Shown here: one piece after another, positions 1,332-45,677 of the stretch
How positions within the stretch are numbered: the first letter of the stretch is position 1
Layout of the letters: the number at the start of each line of letters is the position of its first letter
Source of the DNA: a candidate division FCPU426 bacterium
GTDB taxonomy: Bacteria > Oederibacteriota > Muellerivitia > Muellerivitales > Muellerivitaceae
Assembly (NCBI GenBank): GCA_027452205.1
Contig: DAIDGV010000003.1
Span: 201,399-265,398 of the forward strand
DNA: 64,000 nucleotides
Direction of reading: 5' to 3'
Notes under the pieces: generated by a model
What the model saw: the letters and a program-made list of their open reading frames with translations, nothing else
Databases searched by the model: none
Told to the model about the DNA's origin: nothing
Position numbers and translations under genes: made by a program

Positions 1332-2339
1332 TTATTTCTTGGAGTTCATGTATTCAACCAGGTCCACGACCCGGTTGGAATAACCCCATTCATTGTCATA
1401 CCACGACAGCACCTTCACCATATTGCCGCCGGTCACGTAAGTGGACAAGGCGTCCACGATCGACGAATGTGGGTTGCCTTTGAAGTCGGTCGAGACCAAC
1501 GGTTCTTCCGTCACTTCCAGGTACTTGTTCAAGGCAGGGCTCTTGGCCGCTTCTTTTAAGGCGTTATTGATATCTTCTTTGGTGACGTCTTTCTTCAATT
1601 CAGCCACCAGATCGACCACCGAGACGACAGGTGTCGGGACACGGATAGAAAGACCGTCCAACTTGCCCTTCATGTCCGGCAAGACCAAACCGATGGCCTT
1701 AGCGGCCCCGGTCGAGGTGGGGATCATGTTCAGGCTGGCGGCGCGGGCGCGGCGCAGGTCTTTATGAGGAAAGTCCAAGGTAACTTGGTCGTTCGTAAAG
1801 CTGTGGATGGTCGTCATCAAACCCTTCACGATGCCGAACTTATCGTTCAAGACCTTGGCGAAAGGAGCCAAGCAGTTGGTCGTGCAAGAAGCGTTCGAGA
1901 CCACATGGTGATTCTTCGGGTCATATTTGTCTTCATTGACACCCAAGACGATGGTCAAATCCTCACCCGCAGCCGGGGCGGAAATGATGACCTTCTTGAC
2001 GCTGTCCTTTAGATGAGCGACAGCCTTGGCTTTATCCGTGAAATGGCCGGTTGACTCAACGACAAATTCGGCATTCACGCTGCCCCAAGGGATCTGAGCC
2101 GGGTCGCGTTGGGCGAACACCTTGATCTCTTTGCCATTCACAATGATGGAGTTCTCGCCCGCCTTGATATCCGCGTGCAAATTACCCAAAACCGAGTCAT
2201 ATTTGAGCAAATGAGCCAGTGTCTTAGCATCCGTGAGGTCGTTAACTGCCACGATTTCGATATTCTTGTTGTTCATGGCCGCGCGATAAACATTGCGCCC
2301 TATACGCCCAAATCCGTTGATACCAACCTTGATCGCCAT
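1332..2339 (-). CDS. gap: glyceraldehyde-3-phosphate dehydrogenase (type I)
   Basis: N-terminal GINGFGRIGR NAD-binding motif and catalytic SNASCTTNCLAP motif, 335 aa. Confidence 0.94.
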   Translation of the reverse strand: MAIKVGINGFGRIGRNVYRAAMNNKNIEIVAVNDLTDAKTLAHLLKYDSVLGNLHADIKAGENSIIVNGKEIKVFAQRDPAQIPWGSVNAEFVVESTGHFTDKAKAVAHLKDSVKKVIISAPAAGEDLTIVLGVNEDKYDPKNHHVVSNASCTTNCLAPFAKVLNDKFGIVKGLMTTIHSFTNDQVTLDFPHKDLRRARAASLNMIPTSTGAAKAIGLVLPDMKGKLDGLSIRVPTPVVSVVDLVAELKKDVTKEDINNALKEAAKSPALNKYLEVTEEPLVSTDFKGNPHSSIVDALSTYVTGGNMVKVLSWYDNEWGYSNRVVDLVEYMNSKK

Positions 2340-2416
2340 AAAAGCCCTCCAAGGGTCTAAGTTAAGAGCGGTTAAACTAACATAGCGGTTTTATAGGGTC
2401 AAGGCCCGAATCCCCA

Positions 2417-3172
2417 CTAATTCCCTGCCCTATCATTTCCGTGACGGGGTGTCCGTCCCCAAACGACCGCACCGACCCATCGCACTCCAGCCGTCTTTAA
2501 GACTTTGGCACATTCTTCCAAAGTGGCTCCCGTGGTCAAAACATCATCAACTAGGACAACTCGTTCCACACCCGCGAGCGCGATGACCTCAAAAGCGCCA
2601 CGAGGATTTTTCAAGCGTTCTTCCCGACTTAATGTTCTTTGTGAAACGTTGGAACGAGTTTTTTGGATGAGCGGAAGGACAGGTATATCCGTTCCGATCG
2701 ATATCTGATGCGCTAAAAGTGCCGAAGGGTTATACCCCCGCTCTCTTTCTTTTTCGGGGTTCATTGGCACAGGGATCAAAGCTTGGACTTCTTTCCAAAA
2801 GGAACCGGCTATCGGAATCGTGATCTTATGGGCTAAGGGTATGGCCAAATGTTCCATACCTTGGAATTTGAAAGCATGGTGGGCCAGACGCAGAGCGCCT
2901 TCATAGGGTCCCAAAGAACGGACCGTATCTAAATGGGATGGCATTTCCCCGCAATCAAGACAACGTGGCTCGCCAACCCCCTCAAAGGCTCTTTCTGGAA
3001 GGGATATGCCGCATCGTTCGCAAACCGGGGACCGATAGGGTTCAATCCGATCAAAACAAACCGAACAAAGCACATTAGAAAGCCCTTGGCTGAAGGCAGA
3101 GCCGCAACAAACGCAAACTTTCGGGAAGAACAGATCAAGGAAAGTGGAGGGAACTTTGGAAAGAACACCCAT
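2417..3172 (-). CDS. comF: ComF-family protein (double zinc-ribbon N-terminus plus phosphoribosyltransferase domain)
   Basis: CxxC...CxxC pairs at the N-terminus and a PRTase motif VLVDDVLTTGAT near the C-terminus, typical of ComFC. Confidence 0.65.
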   Translation of the reverse strand: MGVLSKVPSTFLDLFFPKVCVCCGSAFSQGLSNVLCSVCFDRIEPYRSPVCERCGISLPERAFEGVGEPRCLDCGEMPSHLDTVRSLGPYEGALRLAHHAFKFQGMEHLAIPLAHKITIPIAGSFWKEVQALIPVPMNPEKERERGYNPSALLAHQISIGTDIPVLPLIQKTRSNVSQRTLSREERLKNPRGAFEVIALAGVERVVLVDDVLTTGATLEECAKVLKTAGVRWVGAVVWGRTPRHGNDRAGN

Positions 3173-3175
3173 GGA

Positions 3176-6100
3176 TTATTTAATTACCGCGATCTTTTCA
3201 ATGTCCTGAAGGCCGCTCATTTCGGTGGTGATCATATAAACGCCTGATGCCACAAAGTCCCCACTGGCATTCCGTCCGTCCCACTGCAGAGGGTAATTCC
3301 CGCCGACACCATAAACCCCCACATTAAAATACTGGCTGACCAACTGTTTGATAAACACCCCGCTGATACTATAGACCTTGATAGTCACCGTACTGGGATT
3401 CGTGACCACAAAGCGGACATGCACCACCTGTTCATTGGATGTGCCATAGGGACGTAAGCTGTTTCTGTCCAACGCCACGCTCGCGGTCAAACCCGTGGCG
3501 GTCACGGTATTATAAGTCGTTTCATGGACCATGTTTGGATCATTAGTGTTCACGTTGGGCGGCGCGTCATAAGCCCTGACTAAATAGGTATAGGTAGTCC
3601 CATTAATAATCGTGACATCATCCGTATAGCTAGTGGCCGTCGTTCCCTGTGGGTTCAATAATTGATAACTTCCTCCGCCATCACTGGACCGATAAACATG
3701 GTATCCCCCCAACGGATACATGGTCGAAGAATTGAAGTCTGTCACGCCGCTGTTGGCCGCAGTCCAGCTGATGGTATTACCGCTTTGGCCCTGGACCAGG
3801 GTCAAATTCGGATTATCCACCACCGGAGGATGGGCTGGCAGTGCGTTAGCGATCGGGCTATAACCGATCAAGCTGGTATGAGGATCGATCGCGAGGATCT
3901 GATAGTTATAAAGGGTCTTGTCCAACAAGCCCGTGTCAGTGTAATCCAGACCTGTCAATCCGGAAACAATGGTCTGGAAGGACGAAGCCGGGGCCGTTCC
4001 TAATTTTCGTTGAATGGTATAGGTGTAAGCGCTGGCCGCAGCTGTCCCTTGATAGCTCCATCGCAACTGAGCGATCTGATCCCCCGAAACCGCACTCAGC
4101 GTTGTAGGACCCTGGGGCGGTACGGTCAGGGTGACACTATTCGAATACGGGCCGTAGATGTTCTCTCCCGTGGTCGCAATGGCAACCGGCGCCACTTGAT
4201 AGACATAGGCGGACGTATAACCAGTCGTTGTATCCGTATAGGTGGTATTTGTAACGCTCGAAACCGAATAAGTTTGTGTCGTATTCGTTGAAATGGGAGT
4301 GGCTAAGGCTAATCGCTGGATCACGTAACTACCAAAACCAGGGGTAGCGATCTGAGTTACCGGTGACCAATTGAGGATCGCTTGGCTCACCCCCGCTGCC
4401 CCTGACATGGCCAACGGCGGTCCGGCCATGACCGCAACTTCAGTGGTCGGAGCACTTTTGAGCCCCGCTGAGATATCGTCCATATAGTAGAAATACGGTG
4501 TGCCAACCGCCACTTGTGTATCTATATATGGTCCTGAGTGGAAAGGAAGGACTGTTGGCGTTCCGTAAGGTGTCGCTGTGCCTGAGACCAATGCTTTATA
4601 AACCTCATAGGCTGTGACTGGCGCGCTTCCCGTCACTGGCGCCGTCCAATTGAGGGTTACAGCCGCTGAACCTGCCGAAGCCATAAAAACGGAAGGCGGA
4701 TTGGGCCAAACATTGATACCCAAAATGCCTGATAAAGAGAAATTCGCTGTCACCCCCGCACCGTTATCCGAAACGAACTTGTAATAGTTGATGTAACCCG
4801 TCACCGGTGCCGAATCAAAAAGGACCGTAGCAGAACTGCTGAGGCCCCCTATCGTCGTATAGGTCGAAAAACCCGGGTCTGTGGAACGATAAACCGTACA
4901 TTCTTGGGCCGCGCCGCTCGGGAAAGTAATGCCAGATATCCAGACCCCCGGCGTGGGGGTTTGAACAACGCTATAGCCCGTCGGCGTGTTCATAGAAACT
5001 ACTGGCGTGATGGTAGGAACTGGGAAGACGGTCAAGGTCACCGAACTATTACTTGGTCCGCCTGAATTATTGGCGATCACGTAATAAGTCGAAAGAACAC
5101 CTGGGCTTTCAGAGAATACCGCCGACATGGTCGCTGCCGGAACTACTGGAGCACCCGCGACCCCATTGTGGTAAACCGTATAAGTCGCGACATTGTCCGA
5201 CGCGGGGTTATTGAGCCAGAACAAGGTAGTCGCACTTGAGCTTGTATTGGCAACGAGTCCACCTGGCACATTGGGCCAGGTATTCACCGTACCAGGGGCT
5301 GATCCGCTGATCGAAACCGGGCTCTCGGCTACCGGGGTTCCAAGACCATTTGTGGAGCGTTGTGTGACAAAATAAGAATAAAGAACCGCGGGCGAAGCCG
5401 ACGTATCCAGATAACCCGAACTGCCCACGGCAACCGTGGCGATAGGCCTGTATTGAAGGTCCCCTCCCGGGGTCGGCGTGGCCGAAGACCGGTAAATGAC
5501 CCAATGGTCAATGTTCGGTGTTGTATCCGGCATAGGGGTCACATTCCATGACACCGTCACCCCTTGAGCCGGGGATTGAACGACTGCCGTCACATTATAA
5601 GTTGGGGCTGAAATGGCCGAAAAGGACACAGCCTGACTAGCACCAACCGAGTTGTAAGCGACCAAATAATAAGGTGTTGCGGCCCCCAAAGGCGGAAGGG
5701 GTGCTGGGAAAGGGGTCTCCGTTGGTCCAATGGTGTACTCAGGCGTAGGCGGGATCGTCCAAGTTGGGTAATCGGAGCCATAAACTTGATAATTCGTGAT
5801 ATTGTCCGCCTCTGGGTTCATTATCCAGCGCCAGGTCATGTTTGTTGCCGTTTGGATCGCAGGAAGAATCGTCGGCGTTTTTGGAACATATCCAGGCACA
5901 CTATTCGTCGTGATCATATTGGATAAGACCGCTAGGTCCGAAATATTCCCAAAATTATCGATGGCACCCACCGCGTAAGACACCCCGGTGCCGGAAGCGG
6001 CGTCCACGTAATCATTCCGACTGGACAAACTCGCCGATACGGTCGAAACCATGGTGGGTGTTCCCCCATTTACCACCCGGTAAATGGCATAATGACTTAT

Positions 6101-7684
6101 CGTCCCAAACAATCCCGGCAAGGCCCCTGACCAGGAAATGTTAACTTGGTTATTTGTGTTGGCTATTTGATTAGCAATCACAGTTGTGACCGGGGTCGGC
6201 GCCCAATGCTGGGTCGACGAGACCGTATCACCCAAGACCGGGATGGTCGCGGCCCCTGTTGGAATGCCATAGAAAGGTTGTACCCAATAGGAATTACTGG
6301 AATCCGTCACGGTATCGACCGCTATCAGGGTAGGTGTTTGGGAAGGCGTTTCAATGATGGTGGCGAAAGGCAAGGGCGTGAATGTGGGTGACGGTGTGCC
6401 TGCCACCCAGGTCACAACGGGGTAAGGAACTGGCGGCGCTCCGCTCAGGCCTTTATAAACGTTATATCCTTTAATCCCATAAGTTCCGGGGTTGCCCTGG
6501 ATCCAAGTGATGGTCACCGCATCATTAGTCGGGTTAGCGGTCACCGTCATCCCCCCGTTCATCGAAGGTCGGATGATGGAGCCATCAAAAACATTGGAAG
6601 TGACTGCCCCGTTGTTATTGATCGATGCGATGGAATAAGCCAAAGCCGGTCCGCCAGCAGCCACCGGTAACAGGGTCGTATCGAGATAAGTGAAGGTGGG
6701 CGTCGTCGTCGGAGGGACCAAGATCGTCGCGATGGCCGTTCCATTGGATAGGACCTTGAATTGGGTCACCGTTTCGACCGGCAAGGGCGGATTCCAGAAA
6801 AGTTGAACGCCATAGACAGGGGTCGCGTTAGGGGTCATGGTCGGCGTTACCGCCGGCACATACCCGGACAGGAACGGGGTCACGGGCGGCAAGTTATTAT
6901 TCGCCAGGGCCCCAAAGGTAGTGACCGTCGGGTAAGACCCGGTTACCCCATTACTATCGACACCTAATACCGTATAAAAAACCGATGTGGCGCCCGTAAT
7001 GGTCGCCGCTTGTTGATCGGAATAAGAAGGCGTCATGACAGTGGCCACAAAGGTCGGCACCGCCGTCAAGAAAGTTGAAACAGGCATGGTATTCCCTGTC
7101 GGGATAGTGGCCGATGTTTGACGATAGATGTAGTAAGAGGCGACCGGAAAAGTCGACAAGGGGATCCCCCAAGTCAGGTCCAAAGCGTTGTTGTGAATGT
7201 TCTGGACAGAGGGACTGATCGCCGCGGGCGCGGTATAAGGCAAGGCGGTCACCCGTGCCGAAGGGCCATTACCTGAGGCGTTTATCCCCCAGATCGAGTA
7301 CTGGTAAACGATACCGTCGGTCACTTGAAAGTCGGTCAAAGCAGGGGTCGTTGTTGAGGCGACCAAGGAAGAAGATTGCACAATAGCGATCGGTGTCGAG
7401 GTCGGCACCGGTGTTTCCGTTGGAGGGCCACCCGGGGTATCAGTGAACGTTGGTGAGTAATAAACATCCCGGGCAATAGCGTAATTGGTCGCGGCGGGAA
7501 CAGCTTGCCAGATCAAATTGACCTGCCCGCTATAAGGGCTCATGGTCGCGACACCCAACGGCGCCGCCGGCACCTGGGCCCCAACCACCGCGGCAAGGGC
7601 CAGAAACAACACGATTGAAAAAAGGATAGTCTTCTGCCCGTTCAAACGAAGATCCTTTGGGTGAAATGAGCTGAGAGGATCCAT
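3176..7684 (-). CDS. 1502-aa secreted surface protein with many tandem fibronectin-III-like modules and a C-terminal T9SS type-A (Por_Secre_tail / FlgD-Ig-like) sorting domain
   Basis: N-terminal signal peptide (ILFSIVLFLALAAVVGAQ). Repeated modules with W...Y.VYR/Y.V.A motifs, T/P/S/V-rich. The last ~80 aa carry VTIKVYSISGVFIKQL...WDGRNASGDFVASGVYMI...KIAVIK. Start codon overlaps the stop of the upstream giant gene (TGATG at 7682-7686). Confidence 0.6.
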   Translation of the reverse strand: MDPLSSFHPKDLRLNGQKTILFSIVLFLALAAVVGAQVPAAPLGVATMSPYSGQVNLIWQAVPAATNYAIARDVYYSPTFTDTPGGPPTETPVPTSTPIAIVQSSSLVASTTTPALTDFQVTDGIVYQYSIWGINASGNGPSARVTALPYTAPAAISPSVQNIHNNALDLTWGIPLSTFPVASYYIYRQTSATIPTGNTMPVSTFLTAVPTFVATVMTPSYSDQQAATITGATSVFYTVLGVDSNGVTGSYPTVTTFGALANNNLPPVTPFLSGYVPAVTPTMTPNATPVYGVQLFWNPPLPVETVTQFKVLSNGTAIATILVPPTTTPTFTYLDTTLLPVAAGGPALAYSIASINNNGAVTSNVFDGSIIRPSMNGGMTVTANPTNDAVTITWIQGNPGTYGIKGYNVYKGLSGAPPVPYPVVTWVAGTPSPTFTPLPFATIIETPSQTPTLIAVDTVTDSSNSYWVQPFYGIPTGAATIPVLGDTVSSTQHWAPTPVTTVIANQIANTNNQVNISWSGALPGLFGTISHYAIYRVVNGGTPTMVSTVSASLSSRNDYVDAASGTGVSYAVGAIDNFGNISDLAVLSNMITTNSVPGYVPKTPTILPAIQTATNMTWRWIMNPEADNITNYQVYGSDYPTWTIPPTPEYTIGPTETPFPAPLPPLGAATPYYLVAYNSVGASQAVSFSAISAPTYNVTAVVQSPAQGVTVSWNVTPMPDTTPNIDHWVIYRSSATPTPGGDLQYRPIATVAVGSSGYLDTSASPAVLYSYFVTQRSTNGLGTPVAESPVSISGSAPGTVNTWPNVPGGLVANTSSSATTLFWLNNPASDNVATYTVYHNGVAGAPVVPAATMSAVFSESPGVLSTYYVIANNSGGPSNSSVTLTVFPVPTITPVVSMNTPTGYSVVQTPTPGVWISGITFPSGAAQECTVYRSTDPGFSTYTTIGGLSSSATVLFDSAPVTGYINYYKFVSDNGAGVTANFSLSGILGINVWPNPPSVFMASAGSAAVTLNWTAPVTGSAPVTAYEVYKALVSGTATPYGTPTVLPFHSGPYIDTQVAVGTPYFYYMDDISAGLKSAPTTEVAVMAGPPLAMSGAAGVSQAILNWSPVTQIATPGFGSYVIQRLALATPISTNTTQTYSVSSVTNTTYTDTTTGYTSAYVYQVAPVAIATTGENIYGPYSNSVTLTVPPQGPTTLSAVSGDQIAQLRWSYQGTAAASAYTYTIQRKLGTAPASSFQTIVSGLTGLDYTDTGLLDKTLYNYQILAIDPHTSLIGYSPIANALPAHPPVVDNPNLTLVQGQSGNTISWTAANSGVTDFNSSTMYPLGGYHVYRSSDGGGSYQLLNPQGTTATSYTDDVTIINGTTYTYLVRAYDAPPNVNTNDPNMVHETTYNTVTATGLTASVALDRNSLRPYGTSNEQVVHVRFVVTNPSTVTIKVYSISGVFIKQLVSQYFNVGVYGVGGNYPLQWDGRNASGDFVASGVYMITTEMSGLQDIEKIAVIK

Positions 7685-10600
7685 CAGAACTTAGCCTCAC
7701 CAGATAACGAGATCTGCCAAAGAACATAACCCAGGGTTGAGGTCAAATAATCCGTGTAGTACTCATTAATCCCCGTCAACCCAATACGTAAGTTCTTCAA
7801 AGCGTTGTAATCGAACTCGAGTGTACCACGGTATCTTTGGGTTTTGATCTGGTTGTAGGTATATAAAGAATCATTCTCAGTGTAATCACTCAGGAAATTC
7901 GCCTTGAACTCGATGGCATCATGCAGCTGGATCTTCCAGTGGGTGAAAGGAATATGCAACATGAGGTTCGGCGCGAACTTCTGATCGTATTCCGCCGACA
8001 GCTGGTAATCATGTGTATAGGTCGGCACATTCGTGGTGGCCAACCCATTCTGTTCACCTAGTGACTCTTGGAAGCGAATGTTCCCCTGAGACGTCTTGCT
8101 GATCTCATAAGGGAATGTGACACCAAAAATATCGCTTTCAGAATAACTATCGACCTGACTGACGACCGAGCTGTCATACTGCGTGCTATCCGTGTGGGTG
8201 TATTCAATTTGGGCCGAATTCACGCTAAAGCTCAACCACGGGAGGGTAAATATCCTTTTGTTGTAGATCGTAGTGATCCCTAGCGTATCACTCACTTGTT
8301 GCGTGGGGGGGGCGCCCGTATACAGCAATGAATATTGGTCCGTCCAGGAACCGGTGGGGCGAAAATCCCAAACATCGAACAATTTAAAACTCGCGTTCAA
8401 TTGGTCGGTGGTGGATCGTGTCGCCAGCAAAGCAATCTTGTCGATATTGGGATCCGTCGGGTCGATCAGCCACCACTGCTGTCCAAAATTTAATTCTCCC
8501 GCTTGATAACCCGGGATTGAGACAGTGGAGCTGTCCGTCCTTCCACCGAACAAGGTCAAATTGATCTGTTGGAAGAAAGGCAGCCAAGAGCCTGGCGTGA
8601 CGTTCAAGGAATAGTTCACATTGTTCGAGTTGGAGAAGCGTAGCCCATCTTGATAATCTACCGCGTCATACGTGTCGCTACCCGAATAGGTGATCGAGGG
8701 AATGACACCGGGTACCCCCCGATAGACCAATCCTCCCTTGGGCTGGAACTGTTGGACGAAAGGTACCGGTGTCGCCACCGAGCCGGGAACCCCCGGCGAA
8801 TTGGTATTCCCCACCGCGTCGGTCAGCGCCACACTGAACCCCGGCGTGAATACCAAGTTCTTCACAACCTCGGTCGTATTGGTCCAGCCGTAATTTTGCT
8901 GATAGGTCGTGCGATCATACGGCGACAGGAAATTGAAGGTAAAGTCCTGCTGATCATGGGTCAGTGTATAGTTTTCGGTCAATTGGTTCGTGCCAATCGG
9001 GAAGAACCAGAGCTTGGTAGGCATATCATAAGTGCTGATCAAGCTCACCCGCTGTTCGTATTTTTCTGTATTTCCTTGCACCCCGGGTTGGTCCAAATAA
9101 GCCGATTGATAGACATCAACTTCTGAACTGGTGCTACCCGAAAGATTGATGCTGGTCAGACGGCCGAATTCAGGGCCCAGGTCCTTGGTATAAAGGATAC
9201 TGCCGGTGGTCGTATCGATCTGGCTATTGGGAAGGTCCAGGTAATAGGGATTGTTTAGGAGCGCCGTCTCGGTATAAAGCTCTTGATCGGTGAAGGAGAA
9301 TTGGGCCCTCAAAGGCTGTCCGAACAGGTATATCCCACTCGAGGAATAATCCAAACCATATTGAAGCGAGTGTTGAAAATGGGTGGAAGTCTGGTCGATC
9401 TCCGTGAAACCGGAATCTACCTCTCGATAACGGCCGTCGATGACGGCAAAAGGTTTTTTCGGGTCATCACCCAGCACCATTTCCGCGTTCAAACGACGGG
9501 CCGTACCGGTCCGCACATTGGCCGTGTTCGTTCTTAGATTGTCGATCCAAACTTCGCCGGTACGGCCGCCTGGCGGATTGGGAGAAATAAAACCAAAGCT
9601 GATCTGGCTCGCCTTGTTGATATAGGGCGTCCCCACAGTTGTCCGATTCCCGCCGGATCCGTCGATCGCCACATTGACCGCTCCCCAGTTGTCCAGCCCC
9701 AAATTGTTCGCCAGTGATTCCATACTAATGTTGTATTGGTAATAGTCCAACTGGTCATTGCCGATGCGGATGAAAAAGATGTCGCCTTGGTTATAACTAC
9801 GGATATTCATATCCATCGCCAGGTTTTGGTAGTCGGTGAAATCCAGGCCCTGTTGGAAGATGCGGGTCGTATAGTAAATAGGCTTTCCATTGATGTTCCC
9901 AGCCGGGTCATAATCCGCCGAGGAAAGATTGTACGTAATGTCGAGCGACTTCTCATTGAACTGGATGGCATTTTGGTCCTGGCCGGGTTGGATAATAATG
10001 AAGCGCATATTGGGATTGTAGGTCGAGTTCTCGGCTTGACTGATGGAGTTCACGTTGAATTTCGATGGATTGATGGTGACACCCATATCCGCGTTAGCAC
10101 CTGGATCTACCGCCAACTGCCACAAGTTATGCGTGAAATTGATGGTGTCGATCAGGAAATTACCATCGATCGGGGTGCCACTGGTCCCCGTGATCCACAT
10201 TCGCAAACTTTTGACCACAATGGCGTTGGGTGTGCCTTGGCTATGAAAAAAATAAGAAATACCGTTTGATGTAGAGGACTGGTAATCCGGCGACACCAAA
10301 TTCACCGGTATCTTGATCAACTGCCACCCCGACCAATTTGCCCTGATACCATACTCAAAGTAATTATCCTGAGTATTTAAGACACCGGTACCATCCATGT
10401 TCTGCGTAACAAAGCTACCGTTATACTGACCTTCTTGGGAAGTCTCGGGTTGCCCCGGGGAAGAATTGTTGACCACATTGTAATTATTATAGCCTGCCTG
10501 TAAGCCGATGAATCCTAAATCACCATGATTATCGGGCAAGTAATTGAATCCGGCGTGTTGGACGTTATAGGCGAAAGGATTGTTATCAAAAGCGGTATAG

Positions 10601-13600
10601 AATGTGGGTATTCCATAATTCAAGTTTGGATGGGCCTGATTCAGCGGCGAGTCGGAATCGAGGACCGTGACACCGTTCGACGGATCGTTATTGGAGTTTT
10701 CGTTCATGACCCCAAAATCGAACATGATCCATTTATCTTTCCCGTCGTTATAGATCCAAGTTTGGAAATACTGGACCGTAGAAAAGTCTTCCCCTGCCGA
10801 CGAGAGGACTTGCCTCAAACCCGCCCAAGTCGCGTTGGTCAAATGGGCGTAAGGCACCTGCAGAACATTAACCACGTCGCTGGCTTGGTTGGTCTGGGCG
10901 TAAACGTGGCCACCACCACCTGGAATTGCGGTGGACGTATTGATGCCAAAGTCCACTTGGGTCGAGGACACGTCGTCATAAAAACGGACACGATTATTAC
11001 CGCTATCCGCGCCGGCATCATAGGTTCCAGCCTGACTGTTCAAATAGGTCGGCGCGTAGGCAGGCGCAGAAGAGACCAACCAACTACTCGTGTTCAAGGA
11101 AGCCGTAATAGCGCTATCGATCCCTTCCATGTTGTCGACTAAAGCTACCCCTGTCTCGCCTTCGGCATTATAGGTGTCCGGGTTGAAATAACTCTGCGCG
11201 ATTTCACCGGATAGTTTTAGGCTCGCAGGTGGTTTCCATTTTTCAAGTCCTGGGATGATACCCGTGATTGATTTAAGGTCTTCCGAGTCCATCTCATATT
11301 TGGTATCCGCATCGAACAAGGTCAAAGAATTCGGGGTCGACCCCAACTGGGGTGTGTCGTTGGGTTGTTGGGAAGTGTCGAGCAAAAAGGTCGACCCAAT
11401 GAAGAACTTATCGGTAACGTCATACTCCATCCGACCACCGAGGATGTTTTGCGCACCAAAGGAACCAAACGGCGAATATTCATAAGAAACAACGATCTGG
11501 CTGTTAGGCGTCAAGATGCTCTTGTCCTGGAAATCCAGGAAGCCCGATGTGTAATCGATGAAATAATCCGTATCTCTCCGTAAGAGACGCCCATCCAAAT
11601 AAACCGTTTCACTGCCTCTCAAAATATTGATGTTGTCGAGTTTAAAGGTTGTCAGCTGCGTTTTATATCTCAGATGGATCGTATACAGACTGTTCGGAGT
11701 GTTCTGCTGGATGTTGTAAACATCTAAGTTCCCCATCACACCGCCCGCTGCCAAAGGGCTGGCAACTCCATCCTGATTCGGAAAAGGTCGTTCCGGAAAG
11801 TAAAGCGGTGAACTATTGGCAAAATTAACATTTGTTACGCTGATGACATTCAGGTCCAAATTCAAATTATAGACATAAGGATTTGCCGCGGTACCACCCT
11901 GGTTCGTTTGGATGATATTGTTTGTGCCTGTTGAAATGATCTGGAATAGAAAGCCCGGATCCTGCTGGGGCGGTATAAGCTTATCGGTCCCTAACGAGAA
12001 ATAATTCACCAAATACATCGGGCTGAGGACTTTCGAGCTGGTGGTCGAAGTACCCGGGGACCCAACATAATCCTTAATGAGGATGTAGTAAGTGGATCCA
12101 TTATTGCCAGAATCGATAATACCGTTATCGGGAACGTTTAGGATGTCCGTAGAATACTGGCCCAATATCGGTGTCAAGTCCGTGGAAGTGGTACCAAAAA
12201 CGTTCAAACCACGCTTGATTCCACTTTGGTCCGTATACCCGACCGCGACCTGGCTGCTGAGGGATAGGGTACGCAAGAAAGTGATGATCCCGGTCGTGTA
12301 ATCGATGGTGTAATCCCGGCCCGGTAACCAGTGTTCCCACTGGCCGACGAAATTAGGCGTTCCGATCGGGGCATATTGATTGTTGACCGGATTTACCCAG
12401 ATCTGTTCACTGCCGCTCTGGGGCAGATAAGTAGCGGTGGCCTGCGGCCTGGAAATATAGAAATATTTCCAGGGGATATAGGAAATATCCGAATAAGTCT
12501 TGTCGATCTGGGTGGTGTTTCCCGTGAAGACTTTCGTCACCGCGATACCCTTTGTTTGGGCGAAAAAAGATGTAAACCGGAAATTGTCGAATTTGAGCAC
12601 TGCTTGCAGTCCGAATAGCTGCTTACTGAACCCGGCAAACTCGGTGTTGGGCAAGGTCAGCTGCAGGTCACCGAAAGAGACGGTCTGAACCACACTATCT
12701 GGATCCCCATGATAGACGATGGAAATATCTTGTTTGGTCTCGTCCACACCACCGGCGCGATTGACATCGCTATAGTCCACGTTCACATCGACATTACTAC
12801 CGACCTTACCTTTCAAGTTCACGACCAACTCCTGATTAATGGTCGTCGTATTTACCTGATTAGAAACACCGTCCACGTTTGGGCGGTTGAAAGTCTGGAA
12901 AGCGAATGCGGCATCAACTTTTTTATAACCCTGGATCGACAATTGACTGTCAGCGGGCAACTTCAGGTTGATGATATTCTGCTCGGGAACAGCCAGTATC
13001 TTTTCCTGCTCCGGCGCCGTTTGTTTGGCCACTCGGATAGCGGCCAACTGTTCTGTCGATTGAGCGATCTCCATGCCGTTTGGTGTCACCGCCAGTTCAT
13101 CCGAATAAGGGCTCATATTGCCCTGTCCATCCACAGCGGCGACGACATAAAAATAATCCTCGCCATTCTGGGGCAGCAATAAGCTGTTGGAGGCTCCATC
13201 CAAAAAATAGGCCGCGTTCAAGGGCCTGGAATTGACCTGCTTATAACCCATTCCCGGCGTAGTAGAACGATAGACGTTGTAATAGGCGGTACTCGAGCCT
13301 GCGGGCGAGGTATCCCAAGAAAGATAGACCCCTTCCTTAAGGACGATCACCGATACTCCTGTAGGCATGGGCGGCGGGTGGTATATGTAGGTTTTGGAAT
13401 GCGTTGGCACCCCATTCGTGACACCATTCTCAGCATCGATGGATTTAAGCACTCTTGCCTCCTCTTCAGGGCTCAAAGAGAAGTCGCCGGAAACACCTTG
13501 GGAATCCACAGTGGGCACCGGTGAAGCGTTATGCACCGGTCCGTTTCCTGCGGTGGGGATCGGACCCAGCCCATTGGATGCCGGAATAGCCGCCACTGCC

Positions 13601-13746
13601 GTCGCCACGATGGAAGCCTCAGTGGAATGACCCGCCGTGGGCACCACCGTCTGTGCCCATCCCTGATCGATCAGGAGAAAGACGAAAATCCCCAGCCAAA
13701 AAGGGGGTCGCTTAGGCATTTTGATATTCAATATGCAACCGACCAT
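7684..13746 (-). CDS. 2020-aa giant secreted beta-rich outer-membrane protein; SprA-like T9SS translocon candidate (hypothesis)
   Basis: Signal peptide (MPKRPPFWLGIFVFLLIDQGWAQ; alternative start at the second Met). An FN3-like module near the N-terminus, then ~1800 aa of N/T/S/Y/D/G-rich sequence with alternating-hydrophobic beta-strand patterns. C-terminal residue is Phe (LWQISLSGEAKF). SprA is the only family of this size and type known to me. Confidence 0.5.
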   Translation of the reverse strand: MVGCILNIKMPKRPPFWLGIFVFLLIDQGWAQTVVPTAGHSTEASIVATAVAAIPASNGLGPIPTAGNGPVHNASPVPTVDSQGVSGDFSLSPEEEARVLKSIDAENGVTNGVPTHSKTYIYHPPPMPTGVSVIVLKEGVYLSWDTSPAGSSTAYYNVYRSTTPGMGYKQVNSRPLNAAYFLDGASNSLLLPQNGEDYFYVVAAVDGQGNMSPYSDELAVTPNGMEIAQSTEQLAAIRVAKQTAPEQEKILAVPEQNIINLKLPADSQLSIQGYKKVDAAFAFQTFNRPNVDGVSNQVNTTTINQELVVNLKGKVGSNVDVNVDYSDVNRAGGVDETKQDISIVYHGDPDSVVQTVSFGDLQLTLPNTEFAGFSKQLFGLQAVLKFDNFRFTSFFAQTKGIAVTKVFTGNTTQIDKTYSDISYIPWKYFYISRPQATATYLPQSGSEQIWVNPVNNQYAPIGTPNFVGQWEHWLPGRDYTIDYTTGIITFLRTLSLSSQVAVGYTDQSGIKRGLNVFGTTSTDLTPILGQYSTDILNVPDNGIIDSGNNGSTYYILIKDYVGSPGTSTTSSKVLSPMYLVNYFSLGTDKLIPPQQDPGFLFQIISTGTNNIIQTNQGGTAANPYVYNLNLDLNVISVTNVNFANSSPLYFPERPFPNQDGVASPLAAGGVMGNLDVYNIQQNTPNSLYTIHLRYKTQLTTFKLDNINILRGSETVYLDGRLLRRDTDYFIDYTSGFLDFQDKSILTPNSQIVVSYEYSPFGSFGAQNILGGRMEYDVTDKFFIGSTFLLDTSQQPNDTPQLGSTPNSLTLFDADTKYEMDSEDLKSITGIIPGLEKWKPPASLKLSGEIAQSYFNPDTYNAEGETGVALVDNMEGIDSAITASLNTSSWLVSSAPAYAPTYLNSQAGTYDAGADSGNNRVRFYDDVSSTQVDFGINTSTAIPGGGGHVYAQTNQASDVVNVLQVPYAHLTNATWAGLRQVLSSAGEDFSTVQYFQTWIYNDGKDKWIMFDFGVMNENSNNDPSNGVTVLDSDSPLNQAHPNLNYGIPTFYTAFDNNPFAYNVQHAGFNYLPDNHGDLGFIGLQAGYNNYNVVNNSSPGQPETSQEGQYNGSFVTQNMDGTGVLNTQDNYFEYGIRANWSGWQLIKIPVNLVSPDYQSSTSNGISYFFHSQGTPNAIVVKSLRMWITGTSGTPIDGNFLIDTINFTHNLWQLAVDPGANADMGVTINPSKFNVNSISQAENSTYNPNMRFIIIQPGQDQNAIQFNEKSLDITYNLSSADYDPAGNINGKPIYYTTRIFQQGLDFTDYQNLAMDMNIRSYNQGDIFFIRIGNDQLDYYQYNISMESLANNLGLDNWGAVNVAIDGSGGNRTTVGTPYINKASQISFGFISPNPPGGRTGEVWIDNLRTNTANVRTGTARRLNAEMVLGDDPKKPFAVIDGRYREVDSGFTEIDQTSTHFQHSLQYGLDYSSSGIYLFGQPLRAQFSFTDQELYTETALLNNPYYLDLPNSQIDTTTGSILYTKDLGPEFGRLTSINLSGSTSSEVDVYQSAYLDQPGVQGNTEKYEQRVSLISTYDMPTKLWFFPIGTNQLTENYTLTHDQQDFTFNFLSPYDRTTYQQNYGWTNTTEVVKNLVFTPGFSVALTDAVGNTNSPGVPGSVATPVPFVQQFQPKGGLVYRGVPGVIPSITYSGSDTYDAVDYQDGLRFSNSNNVNYSLNVTPGSWLPFFQQINLTLFGGRTDSSTVSIPGYQAGELNFGQQWWLIDPTDPNIDKIALLATRSTTDQLNASFKLFDVWDFRPTGSWTDQYSLLYTGAPPTQQVSDTLGITTIYNKRIFTLPWLSFSVNSAQIEYTHTDSTQYDSSVVSQVDSYSESDIFGVTFPYEISKTSQGNIRFQESLGEQNGLATTNVPTYTHDYQLSAEYDQKFAPNLMLHIPFTHWKIQLHDAIEFKANFLSDYTENDSLYTYNQIKTQRYRGTLEFDYNALKNLRIGLTGINEYYTDYLTSTLGYVLWQISLSGEAKF

Positions 13747-13770
13747 ACGAGCGACCGATCCTTTATCAAC

Positions 13771-14520
13771 TTAATCCAGGTCCAATACTTTCTTAAGCTC
13801 ATCCAATCGATCCCGGCTGACCGGCAACCGCGTCTTGAGTGGATCCGACAGGACGGCGAGATATTTCCTGTCGCCCTCGTGTTCCAATTCCTTGAGATAA
13901 TCGAGATTAATAACAGCGCTACGGTGGATCCGGAGGAATTTTTGTGGATCCAACCGTTTGATCAAAGCGTCCAGGCTGTCGTCCGCCGTTAGTTCTTGCC
14001 CTTCCACCCGCAAGACCGCGTAATGGTCTTTTGCGACGACCGCGGAGATGAATGACGGATCGAACACCTTGTATTTCGAACCACATTTGATCGCCATACG
14101 CCGTTTTGTGCGGCCCTCATCTAGGCGCGCGACCAGGTCCCTTAGATGACCCGCGTTGGCGCCCTCTTTCCTTTTGCGTATACGTTCCAAGGTCTCCGCT
14201 AACCGCTCGGGAGAAACCGGTTTTACCAAATAATCTGCGGCGGAAAGTTCAAAAGCGCGCAAGGCGTGCTCACTGTAAGCTGTCACAAAGACCACCACCG
14301 GGCCTTTGTCCCCCAGGGTTTCTGCCACTTCCAGGCCGTTCAGCTCAGGCATTTCAATGTCCAGGAACAAGAGGTCTGGTTCCAATTTTTGTGCGCTTTG
14401 CAGGGCTTCTACCCCATTGGAGGCTTCCCCGACCACTTCCAGGTCCGGAAAGGCCGCCAACATTCGATGGAACCGGGCCCGGGCCGGTGCTTCGTCATCC
14501 GCGATAAGGACCTTGATCAT
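13771..14520 (-). CDS. LytTR-family response regulator (REC + LytTR DNA-binding domain)
   Basis: MIKVLIADDE...LDIEMPELNG receiver domain. C-terminal LytTR-type domain (KFLRIHRSAVINLDYLKELE). Confidence 0.85.
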   Translation of the reverse strand: MIKVLIADDEAPARARFHRMLAAFPDLEVVGEASNGVEALQSAQKLEPDLLFLDIEMPELNGLEVAETLGDKGPVVVFVTAYSEHALRAFELSAADYLVKPVSPERLAETLERIRKRKEGANAGHLRDLVARLDEGRTKRRMAIKCGSKYKVFDPSFISAVVAKDHYAVLRVEGQELTADDSLDALIKRLDPQKFLRIHRSAVINLDYLKELEHEGDRKYLAVLSDPLKTRLPVSRDRLDELKKVLDLD

Positions 14521-15824
14521 GACTTCCCCTTTTCCGGCGTCGAGACCTTGTTCAAAGGCAAGGAGATCACTAACCGAGCGCCTCCCTTTTTACCGGCTGT
14601 GACCTCTAATGTGCCTTCAGCCCCAAATTCCAAGTTCAACCGTTTTCGGCAATTTTCCAAAGCTGTTCCGGACCCCGCATAAGGAGAGTTTCCAAAGCCC
14701 ACCCCATCGTCCTCGACCGAAAGGGCCAATTGATTCTCTTGTTTCCCTACCTCAACCCATATATGCCCGCCACCCGCCCTGGAGGAGATGCCGTGCTTGA
14801 CCGCGTTCTCCACCAAAGGCTGCAAGATCAAAACGGGCACTTGAATGTTTTCAAGGTCCAACCCTTCGGCGACCTTGATGCGAGAGACCAGTCGGGCGCC
14901 AAAACGGCTCTTTTCAATGTCTAAATAATCTCGGCAAAATTCCAATTCCTTTTTCAGGGCATGATTCGTTTTACGGGTCGCTTCCAAGACCGCTTGGAAC
15001 AAGGAAGAAAGTTTAATCACCACCTGTTCCGCCTTGGCAGGATCCTCAGGGATCAAAGAAGCAACTGTGTTGAGCGTGTTGAAAAGGAAATGCGGGTTCA
15101 TTTGGTCCTTGAGCTTGGTCAAAAGCGCTTGAAGTCTTTCCTTCTCCAATTCTTCAGCGCGCAGGCGACTGGACCGAGCGGCATCCCGCAGTTCTTCCCA
15201 TGATTTCACGAAAAAAAAGACCAAGAGCAACATCCACCCCCAAAAGGTCTCGCTGCCGTAATATTCCCAATGGAACTCTGGTGTAATTGGATCGCCCACG
15301 AAGGTCCAGTTGATGAGATAAACGATCAATCGCAAGGCCAAATAAAGACCCGGTGGTACGAGAATGGCCATGAAAAGAAGGAACCATCCCGTCCCGTGAA
15401 GGGGACGGCTCTTCCCTTGTCGTCCATACCAGAACTTTTCCCCGATTAAGTAGGACCAAATGATCAACATGGCGAACAAGCCAATGAAGGTCGCTTCAAG
15501 GAAGCTCCACCCCCACCTAAAACCGATGGATTGAAGGGAACCCTTCTCATAGATCAGGCTCATCAAGAAACTGGAAAAAGGGTTCCAGATGAAAAGGAGT
15601 TTAAGAAACGAGACCAAAAAGTTCCGCTCAAAATTAAGCGAAAAGAGCCATTTCCACACCCGGTTCATGCGTCGTTCCTTCCCGCTGTTGAAATTGACTA
15701 CCTGTATCCGAGAAACCCCCGGGAACCCCTCTAATACATCCCAAATCATAGCAATTCCGCCTTGGTTGATGGTTATTTTTGGTCCTAGGCAAGACCTGTT
15801 TTGATCCACGCTCTTAAGATACAA
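14517..15824 (-). CDS. LytS/YehU-type sensor histidine kinase (polytopic membrane N-terminus + His_kinase + HATPase_c)
   Basis: Multi-TM N-terminal half. HFLFNTLNTVASLI (PF06580-type His kinase motif). GGHIWVEV...DDGVGF ATPase region. Overlaps the LytTR gene by 4 nt. The real start may be the internal Met at about 15668. Confidence 0.8.
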   Translation of the reverse strand: MYLKSVDQNRSCLGPKITINQGGIAMIWDVLEGFPGVSRIQVVNFNSGKERRMNRVWKWLFSLNFERNFLVSFLKLLFIWNPFSSFLMSLIYEKGSLQSIGFRWGWSFLEATFIGLFAMLIIWSYLIGEKFWYGRQGKSRPLHGTGWFLLFMAILVPPGLYLALRLIVYLINWTFVGDPITPEFHWEYYGSETFWGWMLLLVFFFVKSWEELRDAARSSRLRAEELEKERLQALLTKLKDQMNPHFLFNTLNTVASLIPEDPAKAEQVVIKLSSLFQAVLEATRKTNHALKKELEFCRDYLDIEKSRFGARLVSRIKVAEGLDLENIQVPVLILQPLVENAVKHGISSRAGGGHIWVEVGKQENQLALSVEDDGVGFGNSPYAGSGTALENCRKRLNLEFGAEGTLEVTAGKKGGARLVISLPLNKVSTPEKGKS

Positions 15825-15909
15825 CCCTTACCCAAAGACCGGGGACAGCCGGTCCTCAATGGACGAAAAGCTGTCGTGAGCCGCCGGAAGCGGGGCCTCG
15901 GCTTGCCCC

Positions 15910-15937
15910 TTGGGATGATAGAGCGCTGTGCTATACT
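15910..15937 (+). promoter_or_regulatory. candidate sigma70-type promoter for lptF (TTGGGA-16-TATACT)
   Basis: TTGGGA at 15910-15915, 16-nt spacer, TATACT at 15932-15937. GAGG Shine-Dalgarno and TTG start follow at 15958-15968. Confidence 0.3.
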
Positions 15938-15965
15938 GCGACCCACCACAGCAACCGAGGCTTTT

Positions 15966-17105
15966 TTGAGAATCACCTATCGATACATCCTTCAAGAAAT
16001 GGCGCCGACTTTCTTGGTGGCGGTCGCCATGCTGACCTTCCTTTTCATGACCAACCGTGTCTTTCTTTTGTTGGACCTGATCCTCAACAAAAAAGCCCCT
16101 CTCGGCGATACTCTGGTGCTTTACCTAAGCTTGATGCCCTTTGTTCTCTCCTTTACCATTCCCATGTCCATGATGGTGGCTACCCTTTTGGCCTTTGGCC
16201 GCTTGAGTTCGGACATGGAAGTGACCGCCTTCAAGAGTAGCGGCATCCATGTCTTTCACCTGATCGCACCGGTCCTGGTATTCGGTATGGTGATGACCGG
16301 CATCATGCTCTTTTTCAACGACCGCATCCTGCCAGCGGCTAATTACGCGTTCAAAGAGACCCATTTCAAGATCCTCCAAAAACAGGCAAATGTGGCCATA
16401 CGGGAAAGGATCTTCATCGACCAATTCGAGGGTTACCAGTTCTATATTGACCACCTCAGTCCTGACGGCCTGTTCAATCAGGTGAAGATGTTCAACCGCT
16501 GGTCAGGCAAAGCACCCCTGCAGACCACAGTGGCCAAGACTGGCAATCTGGAATCAGATCCCCAAAAGTACCAAATGTTCTTTCATCTGAACGACGGGGT
16601 CATGAGCTGGGAAAACAATAATTACCAGACCTACAACCGACTCTATTTCCAGCACTACACCATCCATTTAAAGTTGGAGAACCAGTTGGCAAAGATGTCC
16701 GACATCAAGAAGGATTATGAGGAAATGACCTTGGGTGAGCTTTCTTCCGAGATCGGCAAGACCACCGACGAAAGCCGGGAGCGGTCCCTTCACATCGAAT
16801 TTCAAAAACGGATCTCCATGCCCTTCGCTTGCGTCATCTTGATCTGGTTCTGCGCCCCCTTAGGTCTATGGACCCGTTCAAAGGGTTTTATCGGCTTCAT
16901 CTTGGGATTGGCCATGATCTTCGTTTATTACCTGATGTTCACCGTTGGACAGATCATGAGCGAAAGGGGTGTTATGGATCCTGTCATCGGCTGTTGGTGG
17001 CCCAACCTTCTCTTGTTCGTCGTTGGCGCCTTCATTTATTATCTGGTGGTATCCGAAAATTCCGCATTCAAGAACCTGCCTGGTTTTCCCGGCGGCAAAG
17101 GTTGA
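15966..17105 (+). CDS. lptF: LptF/LptG-family LPS export permease (YjgP/YjgQ)
   Basis: ORF track starts at 15801, but the conserved N-terminus (RITYRYILQEM...) aligns with the paralog MRILTRYILKEF. Likely TTG start at 15966 with GAGG 5 nt upstream. 6 TM segments plus a periplasmic beta-jellyroll region. Confidence 0.7.
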   Translation: MRITYRYILQEMAPTFLVAVAMLTFLFMTNRVFLLLDLILNKKAPLGDTLVLYLSLMPFVLSFTIPMSMMVATLLAFGRLSSDMEVTAFKSSGIHVFHLIAPVLVFGMVMTGIMLFFNDRILPAANYAFKETHFKILQKQANVAIRERIFIDQFEGYQFYIDHLSPDGLFNQVKMFNRWSGKAPLQTTVAKTGNLESDPQKYQMFFHLNDGVMSWENNNYQTYNRLYFQHYTIHLKLENQLAKMSDIKKDYEEMTLGELSSEIGKTTDESRERSLHIEFQKRISMPFACVILIWFCAPLGLWTRSKGFIGFILGLAMIFVYYLMFTVGQIMSERGVMDPVIGCWWPNLLLFVVGAFIYYLVVSENSAFKNLPGFPGGKG

Positions 17106-17115
17106 TTGACAAATA

Positions 17116-19014: not shown

Positions 19015-19790
19015 CGAACGATCCCACGGGTAGAGCCGTTGAGAAAATCGACAAGGTGCTTGATCTCTTCGATCTGAGGGAACTCGGTCGTCAAGGTATG
19101 GATCGCTTCCTTCAAGGTCATGTTATTTCGAAAAATGACCTTATGTGCCTTTTTGAGCGTATCGATTGTCTCTTTACTGAAATTATTTCGTTCCAGCCCG
19201 ATCTGGTTAACGCCGATGATACGGAGCGGTTCTTCGCCAGCGATCATATAAGGCACCACATCCTGGACCGCCCGGAACCCTCCGCCGATCATCACATAGC
19301 GCCCGATACGGCAGAACTGGTGGACCGGAGTTACCCCGCCAATGGTTGCATGGTCGTCGATGTGCACGTGCCCGCCCAGGGTCGCTAAGTTGGCTAATTT
19401 GATATGACTACCCAAAACACAGTTATGACCCACGTGGGCCTGGATCATCAGCCAGTTATCATTACCGATAATGGTCTTGCTACCCTCGCCTGTTCCTGGA
19501 TTGACCGTCACGTGTTCGCGAAAATAATTGTCATCACCAATCTCTAAATAACAGATCTCGCCTTTATATTTCACATCTTGAGGTTCGCTGCCAATGACGG
19601 CCCCGGTGAAGACCCGATTGCGTTTCCCCATGCTGGTGTGGCCGGTGATGATACAATGGGACCCAACGGTCGTGCCTTCTCCCAGGGTCACATACTCATC
19701 AATGATGGAATAGGGACCAACGTTCACGCCATCTGCCAACCGGGCCTTAGGATGCACGATGGCCGTCGGATGGATCATGGTTGGCATCAA
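19011..19790 (-). CDS. lpxA: acyl-ACP--UDP-N-acetylglucosamine O-acyltransferase
   Basis: Left-handed beta-helix hexapeptide repeats. [26 protein letters not shown] start, 259 aa. Confidence 0.9.
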
Positions 19791-30680: not shown

Positions 30681-30694
30681 GACCTGTCCAAAAT

Positions 30695-30725
30695 TTGATG
30701 AAGGCGGTGGGAATCGACCCACGGA
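30695..30725. repeat. partial direct repeat of the tmRNA 3' end (T-arm/acceptor), att-scar-like
   Basis: tttgatgaaggcggtgggaatcgacccacgg here versus ttttggtggaggcggtgggaatcgaacccacgt at 30817-30850 (the genuine tmRNA 3' end). About 27/31 identical, same orientation, 124 nt apart. Confidence 0.5.
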
Positions 30726-45593: not shown

Positions 45594-45677
45594 AATTCTC
45601 CCGGTAGGTCCGGCTGGTCAGCGAAGGTGTTCATTATAACAATAAAAGCCCGGCAAAATTCATCCCCCTTCGCTATT

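Follow-up and report, generated by a model that had tools for sequence, protein, structure and literature searches.

A divergent SprA/Sov homologue coupled to an FN3-array protein in candidate division FCPU426: a candidate T9SS-type translocon and its putative substrate

Whether the type IX secretion system's (T9SS) translocon SprA/Sov, a giant 36-strand beta-barrel, has working counterparts outside Bacteroidota is the question raised by a locus in a 64-kb stretch of DNA (hereafter the window) from a bacterium of candidate division FCPU426. The organism is not a member of Bacteroidota: NCBI lists FCPU426 among the unplaced candidate phyla, and one paper equates it with Goldbacteria (PMC7031533). 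The T9SS itself has been described as restricted to Bacteroidota or, at most, to the FCB superphylum (PMC7906972, PMC10994853, PMC12398890). The locus holds a gene for a 2020-aa protein resembling SprA/Sov, followed by a gene for a 1502-aa protein built of FN3-like repeats (the FN3 protein, or cargo), which ends in an Ig-like C-terminal domain (CTD), and preceded by genes for a LytS-type histidine kinase (HK) and a LytTR-family response regulator (RR). An earlier note on this DNA had read the block as a compact, regulated module of translocon plus cargo whose layout is not the canonical one of the Bacteroidetes T9SS; this last remark stands, because the organism belongs to candidate division FCPU426. 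The reading favoured here, which we consider probable though well short of assured, is that of a SprA/Sov-type outer-membrane translocon exporting the coupled, CTD-tagged FN3 surface protein, an ancestral envelope gene to which cargo and regulator were added in FCPU426.

To judge by profile comparison and structure modelling, the 2020-aa product is a genuine, divergent and full-length SprA/Sov homologue, as the earlier note had proposed. The NCBIfam model for the “T9SS outer membrane translocon Sov/SprA” (TIGR04189) matches it in four stretches with 203.3 bits (E = 4e-60), a marginal pass of the curated cutoff of 200 bits, and 12 of 21 members of the family attain about this cutoff level. With a profile built on 21 homologues (A1), Flavobacterium johnsoniae SprA is retrieved from the PDB (6h3i, E = 2.4e-62) over SprA residues 152-1759; a profile is needed for this, and a single-sequence search of PDB sequences with the 2020-aa protein gave no match. 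Alignment by hhalign with a profile of 11 canonical SprA sequences (A5) extends over 1517 columns (probability 100, E = 2e-101), covers positions 194-1792 of 1816 in the profile and starts at aa 264 of the SprA-like protein; from aa 264 to its C-terminus, essentially all of the protein is therefore covered by the homology. An AlphaFold2 (AF2) model, made of aa 900-2020 only, has a mean pLDDT of 82.6 and about 26 strands of 10-19 residues within the last 620 aa. Searched against the PDB with Foldseek, this model has four SprA structures as its top matches (E from 1e-28 to 4e-26), the next match standing at 3e-6.

At both ends of the protein the earlier observations are reproduced. The N-terminus is signal-peptide-like (FWLGIFVFLLIDQGWA, with the predicted cleavage site before QT), and the product ends in GEAKF; alignments of 21 and of 62 homologues show this last Phe to be invariant. 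Behind the signal peptide come a Pro/Ala/Thr-rich linker, an FN3-like domain (aa 137-214) and then, from about aa 264, the SprA homology. A hidden Markov model (HMM) built from the 13 repeats of the cargo alone matches aa 139-214 of the SprA-like protein (18.8 bits, E = 7.5e-8), and more distant FCPU426-like SprA homologues carry PF00041. Compared with SprA/Sov of Bacteroidota (F. johnsoniae; PDB 6H3I, 6H3J, 8GL6, 8GL8; TIGR04189), the protein shares the predicted build of a single-chain giant beta-barrel of ~2000 aa, an alignment of ~1500 columns that begins at SprA residue ~160 and runs almost to the C-terminus, the top Foldseek match, a C-terminal aromatic residue and a genomic association with proteins bearing C-terminal Ig-like sorting domains. 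It differs in being ~400 aa shorter and only ~13-17% identical, in having the linker and FN3 domain in place of the SkpA-binding N-terminal segment, in lacking a Pfam SprA_N match, in a host phylum outside Bacteroidota and the FCB group, in a gene that lies beside lptFG and is translationally coupled to that of a putative substrate, and in a 64-kb window without PorV and GldKLMN homologues.

As a separate observation, both predicted signal-peptidase sites, that of the SprA-like protein (between GWA and QT; window 13746-13650, minus strand) and that of the FN3 protein (between VGA and QV; 7684-7570, minus strand), expose an N-terminal Gln. This recalls the “Q-rule” for N-terminal glutamine, which was reported as specific to Bacteroidetes (PMC5837995); with two proteins only, it may be a coincidence.

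The second large protein is the candidate substrate. A signal peptide can be read from its N-terminal sequence, 13 FN3-like repeats at aa 52-1381 emerge from an iterated repeat HMM (i-E from 1e-13 to 1e-25), and the extreme C-terminus is formed by the Ig-like domain; the earlier note was right in describing an array of FN3 repeats that ends in a T9SS-like sorting domain. Pfam fn3 (PF00041) has no match in the 1502-aa protein at E ≤ 0.1, the PDB “Fn3-like protein” 3mpc is matched at E = 2.8e-4, and the counterpart proteins in two distant FCPU426 loci (L031 and L040) match Pfam fn3 at 1e-13 and 6e-23. The last 100 aa match the CTD segments of PorZ (6.6e-7) and PorU (3.8e-4), also FlgD_ig. The AF2 model of the CTD is a beta-sandwich (pLDDT 92.4), for which a Foldseek search returns PorZ (1.3e-4) and PorU (2.4e-3), with C5a-peptidase, FlgD and complement C3 equally good, and a profile of 23 CTDs from related loci (A3) finds FlgD (2.7e-6), C5a peptidase, PorZ (3e-4) and PorU (5e-4) in the PDB.

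All 23 related CTDs match TIGR04183 at E ≤ 1 (best 4e-7), and they match the CTDs of PorU and PorZ as well. In every one of the 23 the domain coincides with the end of the ORF, the last residue is K/R and a further K/R is conserved six residues before it (the 1502-aa protein ends in EKIAVIK). Across the related loci the same type of domain is joined to FN3 arrays, an S8 subtilase, an M6 metalloprotease and DUF2341 proteins, and unrelated passengers on one type of CTD fit the pattern of a modular export tag. Database matches to the CTD profile carry PF18962 and PF13860, and some of those from Endomicrobia are already named “T9SS type A sorting domain-containing protein” by NCBI; in a set of 5.8 billion proteins the matches were almost all short fragments, and no full-length PorU- or PorZ-like proteins were recovered. 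The domain, as far as profiles can place it, is an Ig-like domain related to the T9SS type-A CTDs that lies below their cutoffs. Like the latter (TIGR04183/PF18962; PorZ 5M11, PorU 6ZA2, RgpB 5HFS), it is a predicted beta-sandwich of ~80-100 aa, closes Sec-dependent proteins at their very C-terminus, keeps a G-x-Y core motif conserved, has a basic residue close to its end (K..AVIK) and occurs on varied passenger domains, and its HMM matches are weak but consistent; it departs from them in its scores under the curated cutoffs and in the WDGxN..G..VasGVY signature of FlgD_ig (PF13860), the FlgD Ig match being at least as good. The reading as a sorting signal is drawn from position and modularity, since a T9SS signal is proved neither by the sequence score nor by the fold. 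In the window itself a single CTD protein was noticed.

The two genes are tightly coupled, and the coupling is conserved. All four genes lie in the same direction on the minus strand (Table 1), and the spacings at every junction given by the earlier note were reproduced from the ORF table and the translations: HK and RR overlap by 4 nt (14517-14520), 24 nt (13747-13770) separate the stop of the RR gene from the ATG of the 2020-aa gene, which has AAGGA 12 nt upstream, the stop of the 2020-aa gene and the ATG of the 1502-aa gene overlap in TGATG at 7682-7686 (context AAG TTC TGATGG), and the 1502-aa stop is followed after 3 nt by the ATG of comF. Both large ORFs are real genes rather than chance ORFs; the homologues of each are numerous, at 35-90% identity. 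The gap from the SprA-like stop to the cargo ATG ranges from -1 to +17 nt in 15 related FCPU426 loci, with cargo proteins that are 35-50% identical, and the pair is thus as tightly joined as the earlier note had it. The distant FCPU426 loci L031 and L040, whose SprA-like proteins are ~27-30% identical, have a different FN3 and CTD gene 16-19 nt downstream. Translational coupling suggests that the FN3 protein is the main client in the clade, or a fixed partner. The comF-like gene probably stands outside the SprA-like/cargo system.

Table 1. Features of the SprA-like locus and its immediate neighbours (positions in the window).
Feature	Positions	Strand	Basis or remark
LytS/YehU-type sensor histidine kinase (HK)	14517-15824	-	PF06580 His_kinase + HATPase_c; multi-pass membrane N-terminus
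LytTR-family response regulator (RR)	13771-14520	-	receiver + LytTR DNA-binding domain
SprA/Sov-family protein, predicted giant outer-membrane beta-barrel, 2020 aa; candidate T9SS-type translocon	7684-13746	-	
FN3-like domain, aa 137-214 of the SprA-like protein	13105-13338	-	cargo-repeat HMM
Predicted secreted protein of 1502 aa, with a signal peptide, an array of 13 FN3-like repeats and a C-terminal sorting domain	3176-7684	-	candidate substrate or surface fibril
13 FN3-like repeats, aa 52-1381 of the 1502-aa protein	3542-7531	-	iterated repeat HMM
C-terminal Ig-like sorting domain (last 100 aa, ending in WDGRNASGDFVASGVYMITTEMSGLQDIEKIAVIK before the stop), T9SS type-A-like / FlgD_ig-like	3179-3478	-	
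ComF/GntX-family phosphoribosyltransferase	2417-3172	-	conserved downstream neighbour of the SprA-like gene
lptF + lptG (lipopolysaccharide export permeases)	15801-18204	+	divergent from the block; Pfam LptF_LptG E = 4e-80, 1e-84

The age of the locus emerges from its distribution. Homologues of the SprA-like protein are found in candidate division FCPU426, Firestonebacteria, Elusimicrobiota and Sumerlaeota and in some metagenome-assembled genomes (MAGs) labelled Clostridia or Proteobacteria. The closest relatives are from FCPU426 (a bog isolate at 67% identity), those of Firestonebacteria and Elusimicrobiota are ~23-30% identical, and the canonical SprA of Bacteroidota comes in only at the foot of the list of homologues. 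When the proteins of the window were searched against 77 related loci, a conserved order was found in FCPU426, Firestonebacteria and Elusimicrobiota, in which lptF and lptG are read away from the SprA-like gene and the latter is followed in its own direction by comF, gap and pgk; LptF/G ORFs occur in 64 of the 77, comF in 47, and gap and pgk in ~25, and some family members (L078) are not beside lptFG. Beyond the lpt genes the window continues with lpxI, lpxA, an lpxC-fabZ fusion (19787-21115), lpxD and skp (22173-22682). This deep synteny marks the SprA-like gene as part of the vertically inherited core of envelope genes and not as an accessory block. Orthologues of the cargo (35-50% identical) occur only in the close FCPU426 clade, in ~20 loci and always between the SprA-like gene and comF; in Firestonebacteria and Elusimicrobiota comF follows the SprA-like gene directly, with no FN3 partner between. 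On the distribution seen in these loci, the FN3 cargo gene and, separately, the HK-RR pair are later additions within FCPU426. The GC content is 0.48-0.55 throughout and does not break at the block, and a horizontal-transfer island is ruled out by this composition and by the synteny.

Two observations attach to the same neighbourhood. The skp gene near the SprA-like locus may merit attention, canonical SprA being known to bind a Skp homologue. Several MAGs with Clostridia labels (L057, L060, L064, L065, L067, L070) or proteobacterium labels (L002, L010, L012, L023) carry the SprA-like gene and lptFG in the same synteny, and their labels “uncultured Clostridia bacterium” and “proteobacterium” are probably wrong.

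Further components of a T9SS-like machinery come into view in the sister phyla. Clustering of ORFs across loci revealed, beyond lptG in seven Elusimicrobiota loci, a trio of genes for a TPR protein, an outer-membrane protein (OMP) of ~500 aa and a CTD-tagged M6 peptidase (L042:2910-7007, L043:3106-7080 and L061:3462-7419, also L044, L048, L051 and L072); the trio is convergent with lptG and lies at most 5 kb from the SprA-like gene. The ~500-aa OMP resembles the PorV/PorQ family and also matches “PorV2” over an N-terminal motif (LGMGGAFVAVADD..NPAG). A PorV-like profile further finds ORFs beside an S8-CTD gene (L065, L067) and beside CTD genes in Firestonebacteria (L047, L033), with no match in the window or in the FCPU426 flanks; in the databases it retrieves mostly Elusimicrobia, with nothing labelled FCPU426 among the best 120 matches, and the relatives are named “conjugal transfer protein TraF” or hypothetical by NCBI. 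The likeness to the PorV/PorQ OMPs (NF033709, NF033710, NF033711) is that of ~330-500-aa OMPs of Elusimicrobiota, Firestonebacteria and related MAGs, adjoining CTD-tagged genes near a SprA-like gene; they differ in scoring below the family cutoff, and none is found in the window or the FCPU426 flanks. At the level of sequence, the PorV/PorQ-like genes and CTD proteases of the sister phyla support a T9SS-type translocon function for the family as a whole, not the presence of a partner in the FCPU426 genome.

The two regulatory genes are of the kind that the earlier note had named: the HK matches PF06580 His_kinase (E = 4e-24) and HATPase_c (2e-10), and the RR matches Response_reg (6e-23) and LytTR (3e-19), its nearest NCBIfam model being BtsR, below that model's cutoff. 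The LytS 5TM sensor domain was not reported for the HK in the Pfam scan. LytSR and BtsSR/YehUT are resembled in the combination of a PF06580 and HATPase_c kinase with a regulator made of receiver and LytTR domain and in the 4-nt overlap of the genes; the pair differs from these systems in that the kinase has no 5TM-LytS match and the regulator falls under the BtsR and LytR equivalog cutoffs. The known regulators of the T9SS are PorXY/SigP, and we know of none that is a LytTR system. The HK-RR pair is confined to the close FCPU426 clade and is absent in L005, L009, L018 and L019, of which L005, L009 and L019 keep the SprA-like and cargo genes and L018 ends inside the SprA-like gene; as read from these loci, the pair is a clade-specific insertion. 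The TTG at 15824, the longest-ORF start of the HK, is probably too far upstream, and the ATG at 15749 or 15668 is likelier, since orthologue alignments begin near residue 20-53. By orthologue alignments the lptF start at 15801 (TTG) is probably also too early, and these two longest-ORF starts overlap each other. Later starts of HK and lptF would leave a divergent intergenic region of ~200 nt (window 15668-15957), a natural site for the promoters of both units. Judged by gene order alone, the LytS-type kinase and LytTR regulator probably tune transcription of translocon and cargo; the earlier wording, that the pair of genes is placed under a LytTR regulator, went too far, being a reading of gene order for a two-gene system that some relatives lack.

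Several results weigh against export of the FN3 protein by a T9SS-type translocon at this locus. Of the two family models for the barrel to which the earlier note had pointed, TIGR04189 matches as described and PF14349 (SprA_N) does not: the Pfam scan of the 2020-aa protein returned nothing, PF14349 being without a match at E ≤ 0.1, while a precomputed PF14349 match is present in some family members (e.g., P0030, P0031, P0049, P0081). In the extended translocon, the first ~150 residues of canonical SprA adopt their fold within SkpA (PMC10994853), and this SkpA-binding segment has no counterpart in the SprA-like protein, whose homology begins at SprA residue ~152-162. As for the cargo, the whole 1502-aa protein matches neither TIGR04183 nor PF18962, and its last 100 aa alone reach 16.9 bits (E = 0.0045) with TIGR04183, under the curated cutoff of 23 bits. 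The CTD is not uniquely a T9SS signal, FlgD Ig and C5a-peptidase scoring equally in sequence and fold, and its earlier description as “near-consensus” type A was overstated.

Partner genes are likewise missing from the surroundings. No homologues of gldK/L/M/N, porV, porU, porZ, porP, porT or sprE are found in the 64-kb window, the rest of which holds housekeeping and regulatory genes only, and none of gldK/L/M/N, porV, porU, porP, porT or sprE in the ±10-kb flanks of the FCPU426 relatives. T9SS genes are normally dispersed, and for this reason the want of a partner in the window says little. The ~500-aa OMPs of Elusimicrobiota match NF033709 with E from 1e-13 to 2e-18, which at 51-67 bits is under the cutoff of 90. 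Regulation fares no better: a promoter and terminator scan of 2300-16200 gave counts equal to the shuffled expectation, a chance level that is uninformative, and the search of the intergenic region between HK and lptF (15700-15990) for LytTR-box-like repeats, a weak test, found no direct or inverted repeats of ≥9 nt.

Some of these points, and the surroundings of the gene, lend themselves to the view that the SprA-like barrel is a housekeeping exporter or insertase of envelope biogenesis, handling lipopolysaccharide (LPS), lipoproteins or other outer-membrane material together with LptFG, and that the FN3 protein is a mere neighbour or partners it structurally at the surface. Three phyla keep the gene between lptG-lptF and comF-gap-pgk, with LptF/G in 64 of the 77 loci, the window goes on with lpxI, lpxA, lpxC-fabZ, lpxD and skp, no motor or other T9SS gene is nearby, and the SkpA-binding N-terminus of canonical SprA is missing. 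However, the homology with the T9SS translocon runs over essentially the whole barrel, CTD-tagged proteins and PorV/PorQ-like genes recur at the locus, some members lie away from lptFG (L078), and the cluster also holds the unrelated housekeeping genes comF, gap and pgk, so that the synteny may reflect shared ancestry and not function. We regard this view as improbable; an LptD-like function in particular was considered because of the lptFG synteny and is kept only as a rival of low probability because the SprA homology spans the whole barrel.

Equally hard to favour is the idea that the FN3 protein is a stoichiometric, permanent part of the translocon or of a cell coat (S-layer-like, stalk or cap), with the coupling setting a fixed ratio. 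It would account for the 1-nt stop/start overlap and for tight spacing kept at 35-50% identity, for the FN3 domain, alike in subtype, that the SprA-like protein itself bears at its N-terminus, and for the distant FCPU426 loci that keep an FN3 and CTD gene behind the SprA-like gene despite differences in size; yet Firestonebacteria and Elusimicrobiota do without an FN3 partner between the SprA-like gene and comF, and the CTD is a modular tag found also on proteases, as expected of a substrate. Least credible, and to our minds very improbable, is the self-contained, LytTR-regulated accessory module of translocon plus cargo, coming and going as a unit, that the earlier note had envisaged. Four co-directional genes with minimal spacing, and a two-component system and cargo confined to one FCPU426 clade, would suit such a module, but it is largely refuted by the synteny, which shows the SprA-like gene in a fixed place in no fewer than three phyla; moreover, the composition shows no anomaly at the block (GC 0.48-0.55), no mobile-element genes flank it, and the two-component system is absent from L005, L009, L018 and L019, the SprA-like and cargo genes remaining in L005, L009 and L019.

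Under the favoured reading of a SprA/Sov-type translocon with a coupled substrate, both large proteins would reach the periplasm by the Sec route, as their signal peptides indicate, and the SprA-like barrel would insert into the outer membrane by means of its beta-signal Phe and barrel-type strands. The FN3 protein would be recognised via its C-terminal Ig-like sorting domain, which may dock to the translocon at its periplasmic or its lateral face; docking of a CTD to the translocon has been solved for F. johnsoniae (PMC10994853). We infer that the rod of 13 FN3 modules would then be threaded through the SprA-like barrel to the surface and that, exposed there, it might form a long fibril, an adhesin or a coat. 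The co-directional LytS-type kinase and LytTR regulator upstream would probably modulate the expression of both. A broader proposal, which we put forward tentatively and think rather unlikely, is that Elusimicrobiota, Firestonebacteria and FCPU426 share the core of a minimal ancestral T9SS-like export made of a SprA-type barrel, a PorV/PorQ-type partner and a FlgD-Ig-type tag, predating or standing apart from the Bacteroidota system, maybe without a GldKLMN motor-ring, and that FCPU426 gained an obligately co-translated FN3 fibril as principal client.

Other features were noted along the way. In distant FCPU426-like loci (L080:8168-9688, L027:8002-9504 and five others) a PMT/ArnT-type glycosyltransferase gene lies between lptF and the SprA-like gene, and the window has, ~30 kb from the SprA-like locus, a gene for a TMEM260-like O-mannosyltransferase with TPR repeats (45678-47879); Thr, Ser and Pro abound in the FN3 protein and in the SprA linker, a hint at possible O-glycosylation. 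At 43287-50209 (minus strand), a 768-aa protein joins a T2SSE/PilB-type secretion ATPase to TPR repeats, and the genes of two large TPR proteins come after it. A tmRNA gene with the tag ADNQLALAA (30820-31164, minus strand) is followed by an ORF with a weak match to a TIR domain (CAP12/Pycsar effector; 31929-32609, minus strand), and several ORFs near it, including 29376-30722 and 33045-34028, have no family match; a small region, integrated or devoted to defence, may lie at this tmRNA gene. A 467-aa ORF with a YD repeat and an RHS repeat-associated core domain (53799-55202, minus strand), adjoining valS, resembles a short or truncated Rhs-type toxin gene.

Among the papers searched, none links SprA or the T9SS to FCPU426/Goldbacteria, Firestonebacteria or Elusimicrobiota (including Endomicrobia), and public records name the members of the SprA-like family “hypothetical protein.” A look-up of the exact 2020-aa sequence, with two alternative starts, gave no record. 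What is new is a SprA clade, shortened and remodelled at its N-terminus, in non-FCB phyla and in an lpt/lpx neighbourhood, which in FCPU426 is co-translated with an FN3-CTD protein; the novelty is tempered by current NCBIfam models, which already touch the family at their thresholds. A full-length SprA homologue, CTD-tagged proteins and sister-phylum PorV/PorQ-like genes would together widen the range of this translocon to three candidate or poorly studied phyla, and would serve as a natural test for telling ancestral T9SS parts from additions of Bacteroidota, of which the SkpA-binding N-terminus, the motor and the sortase may be examples. The anchoring of T9SS cargo is linked to LPS, and the position beside lptFG and the lpx genes raises the question of whether this link may have deep roots. 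The same findings would suggest how the uncultured bacteria of these phyla display adhesins and proteases.

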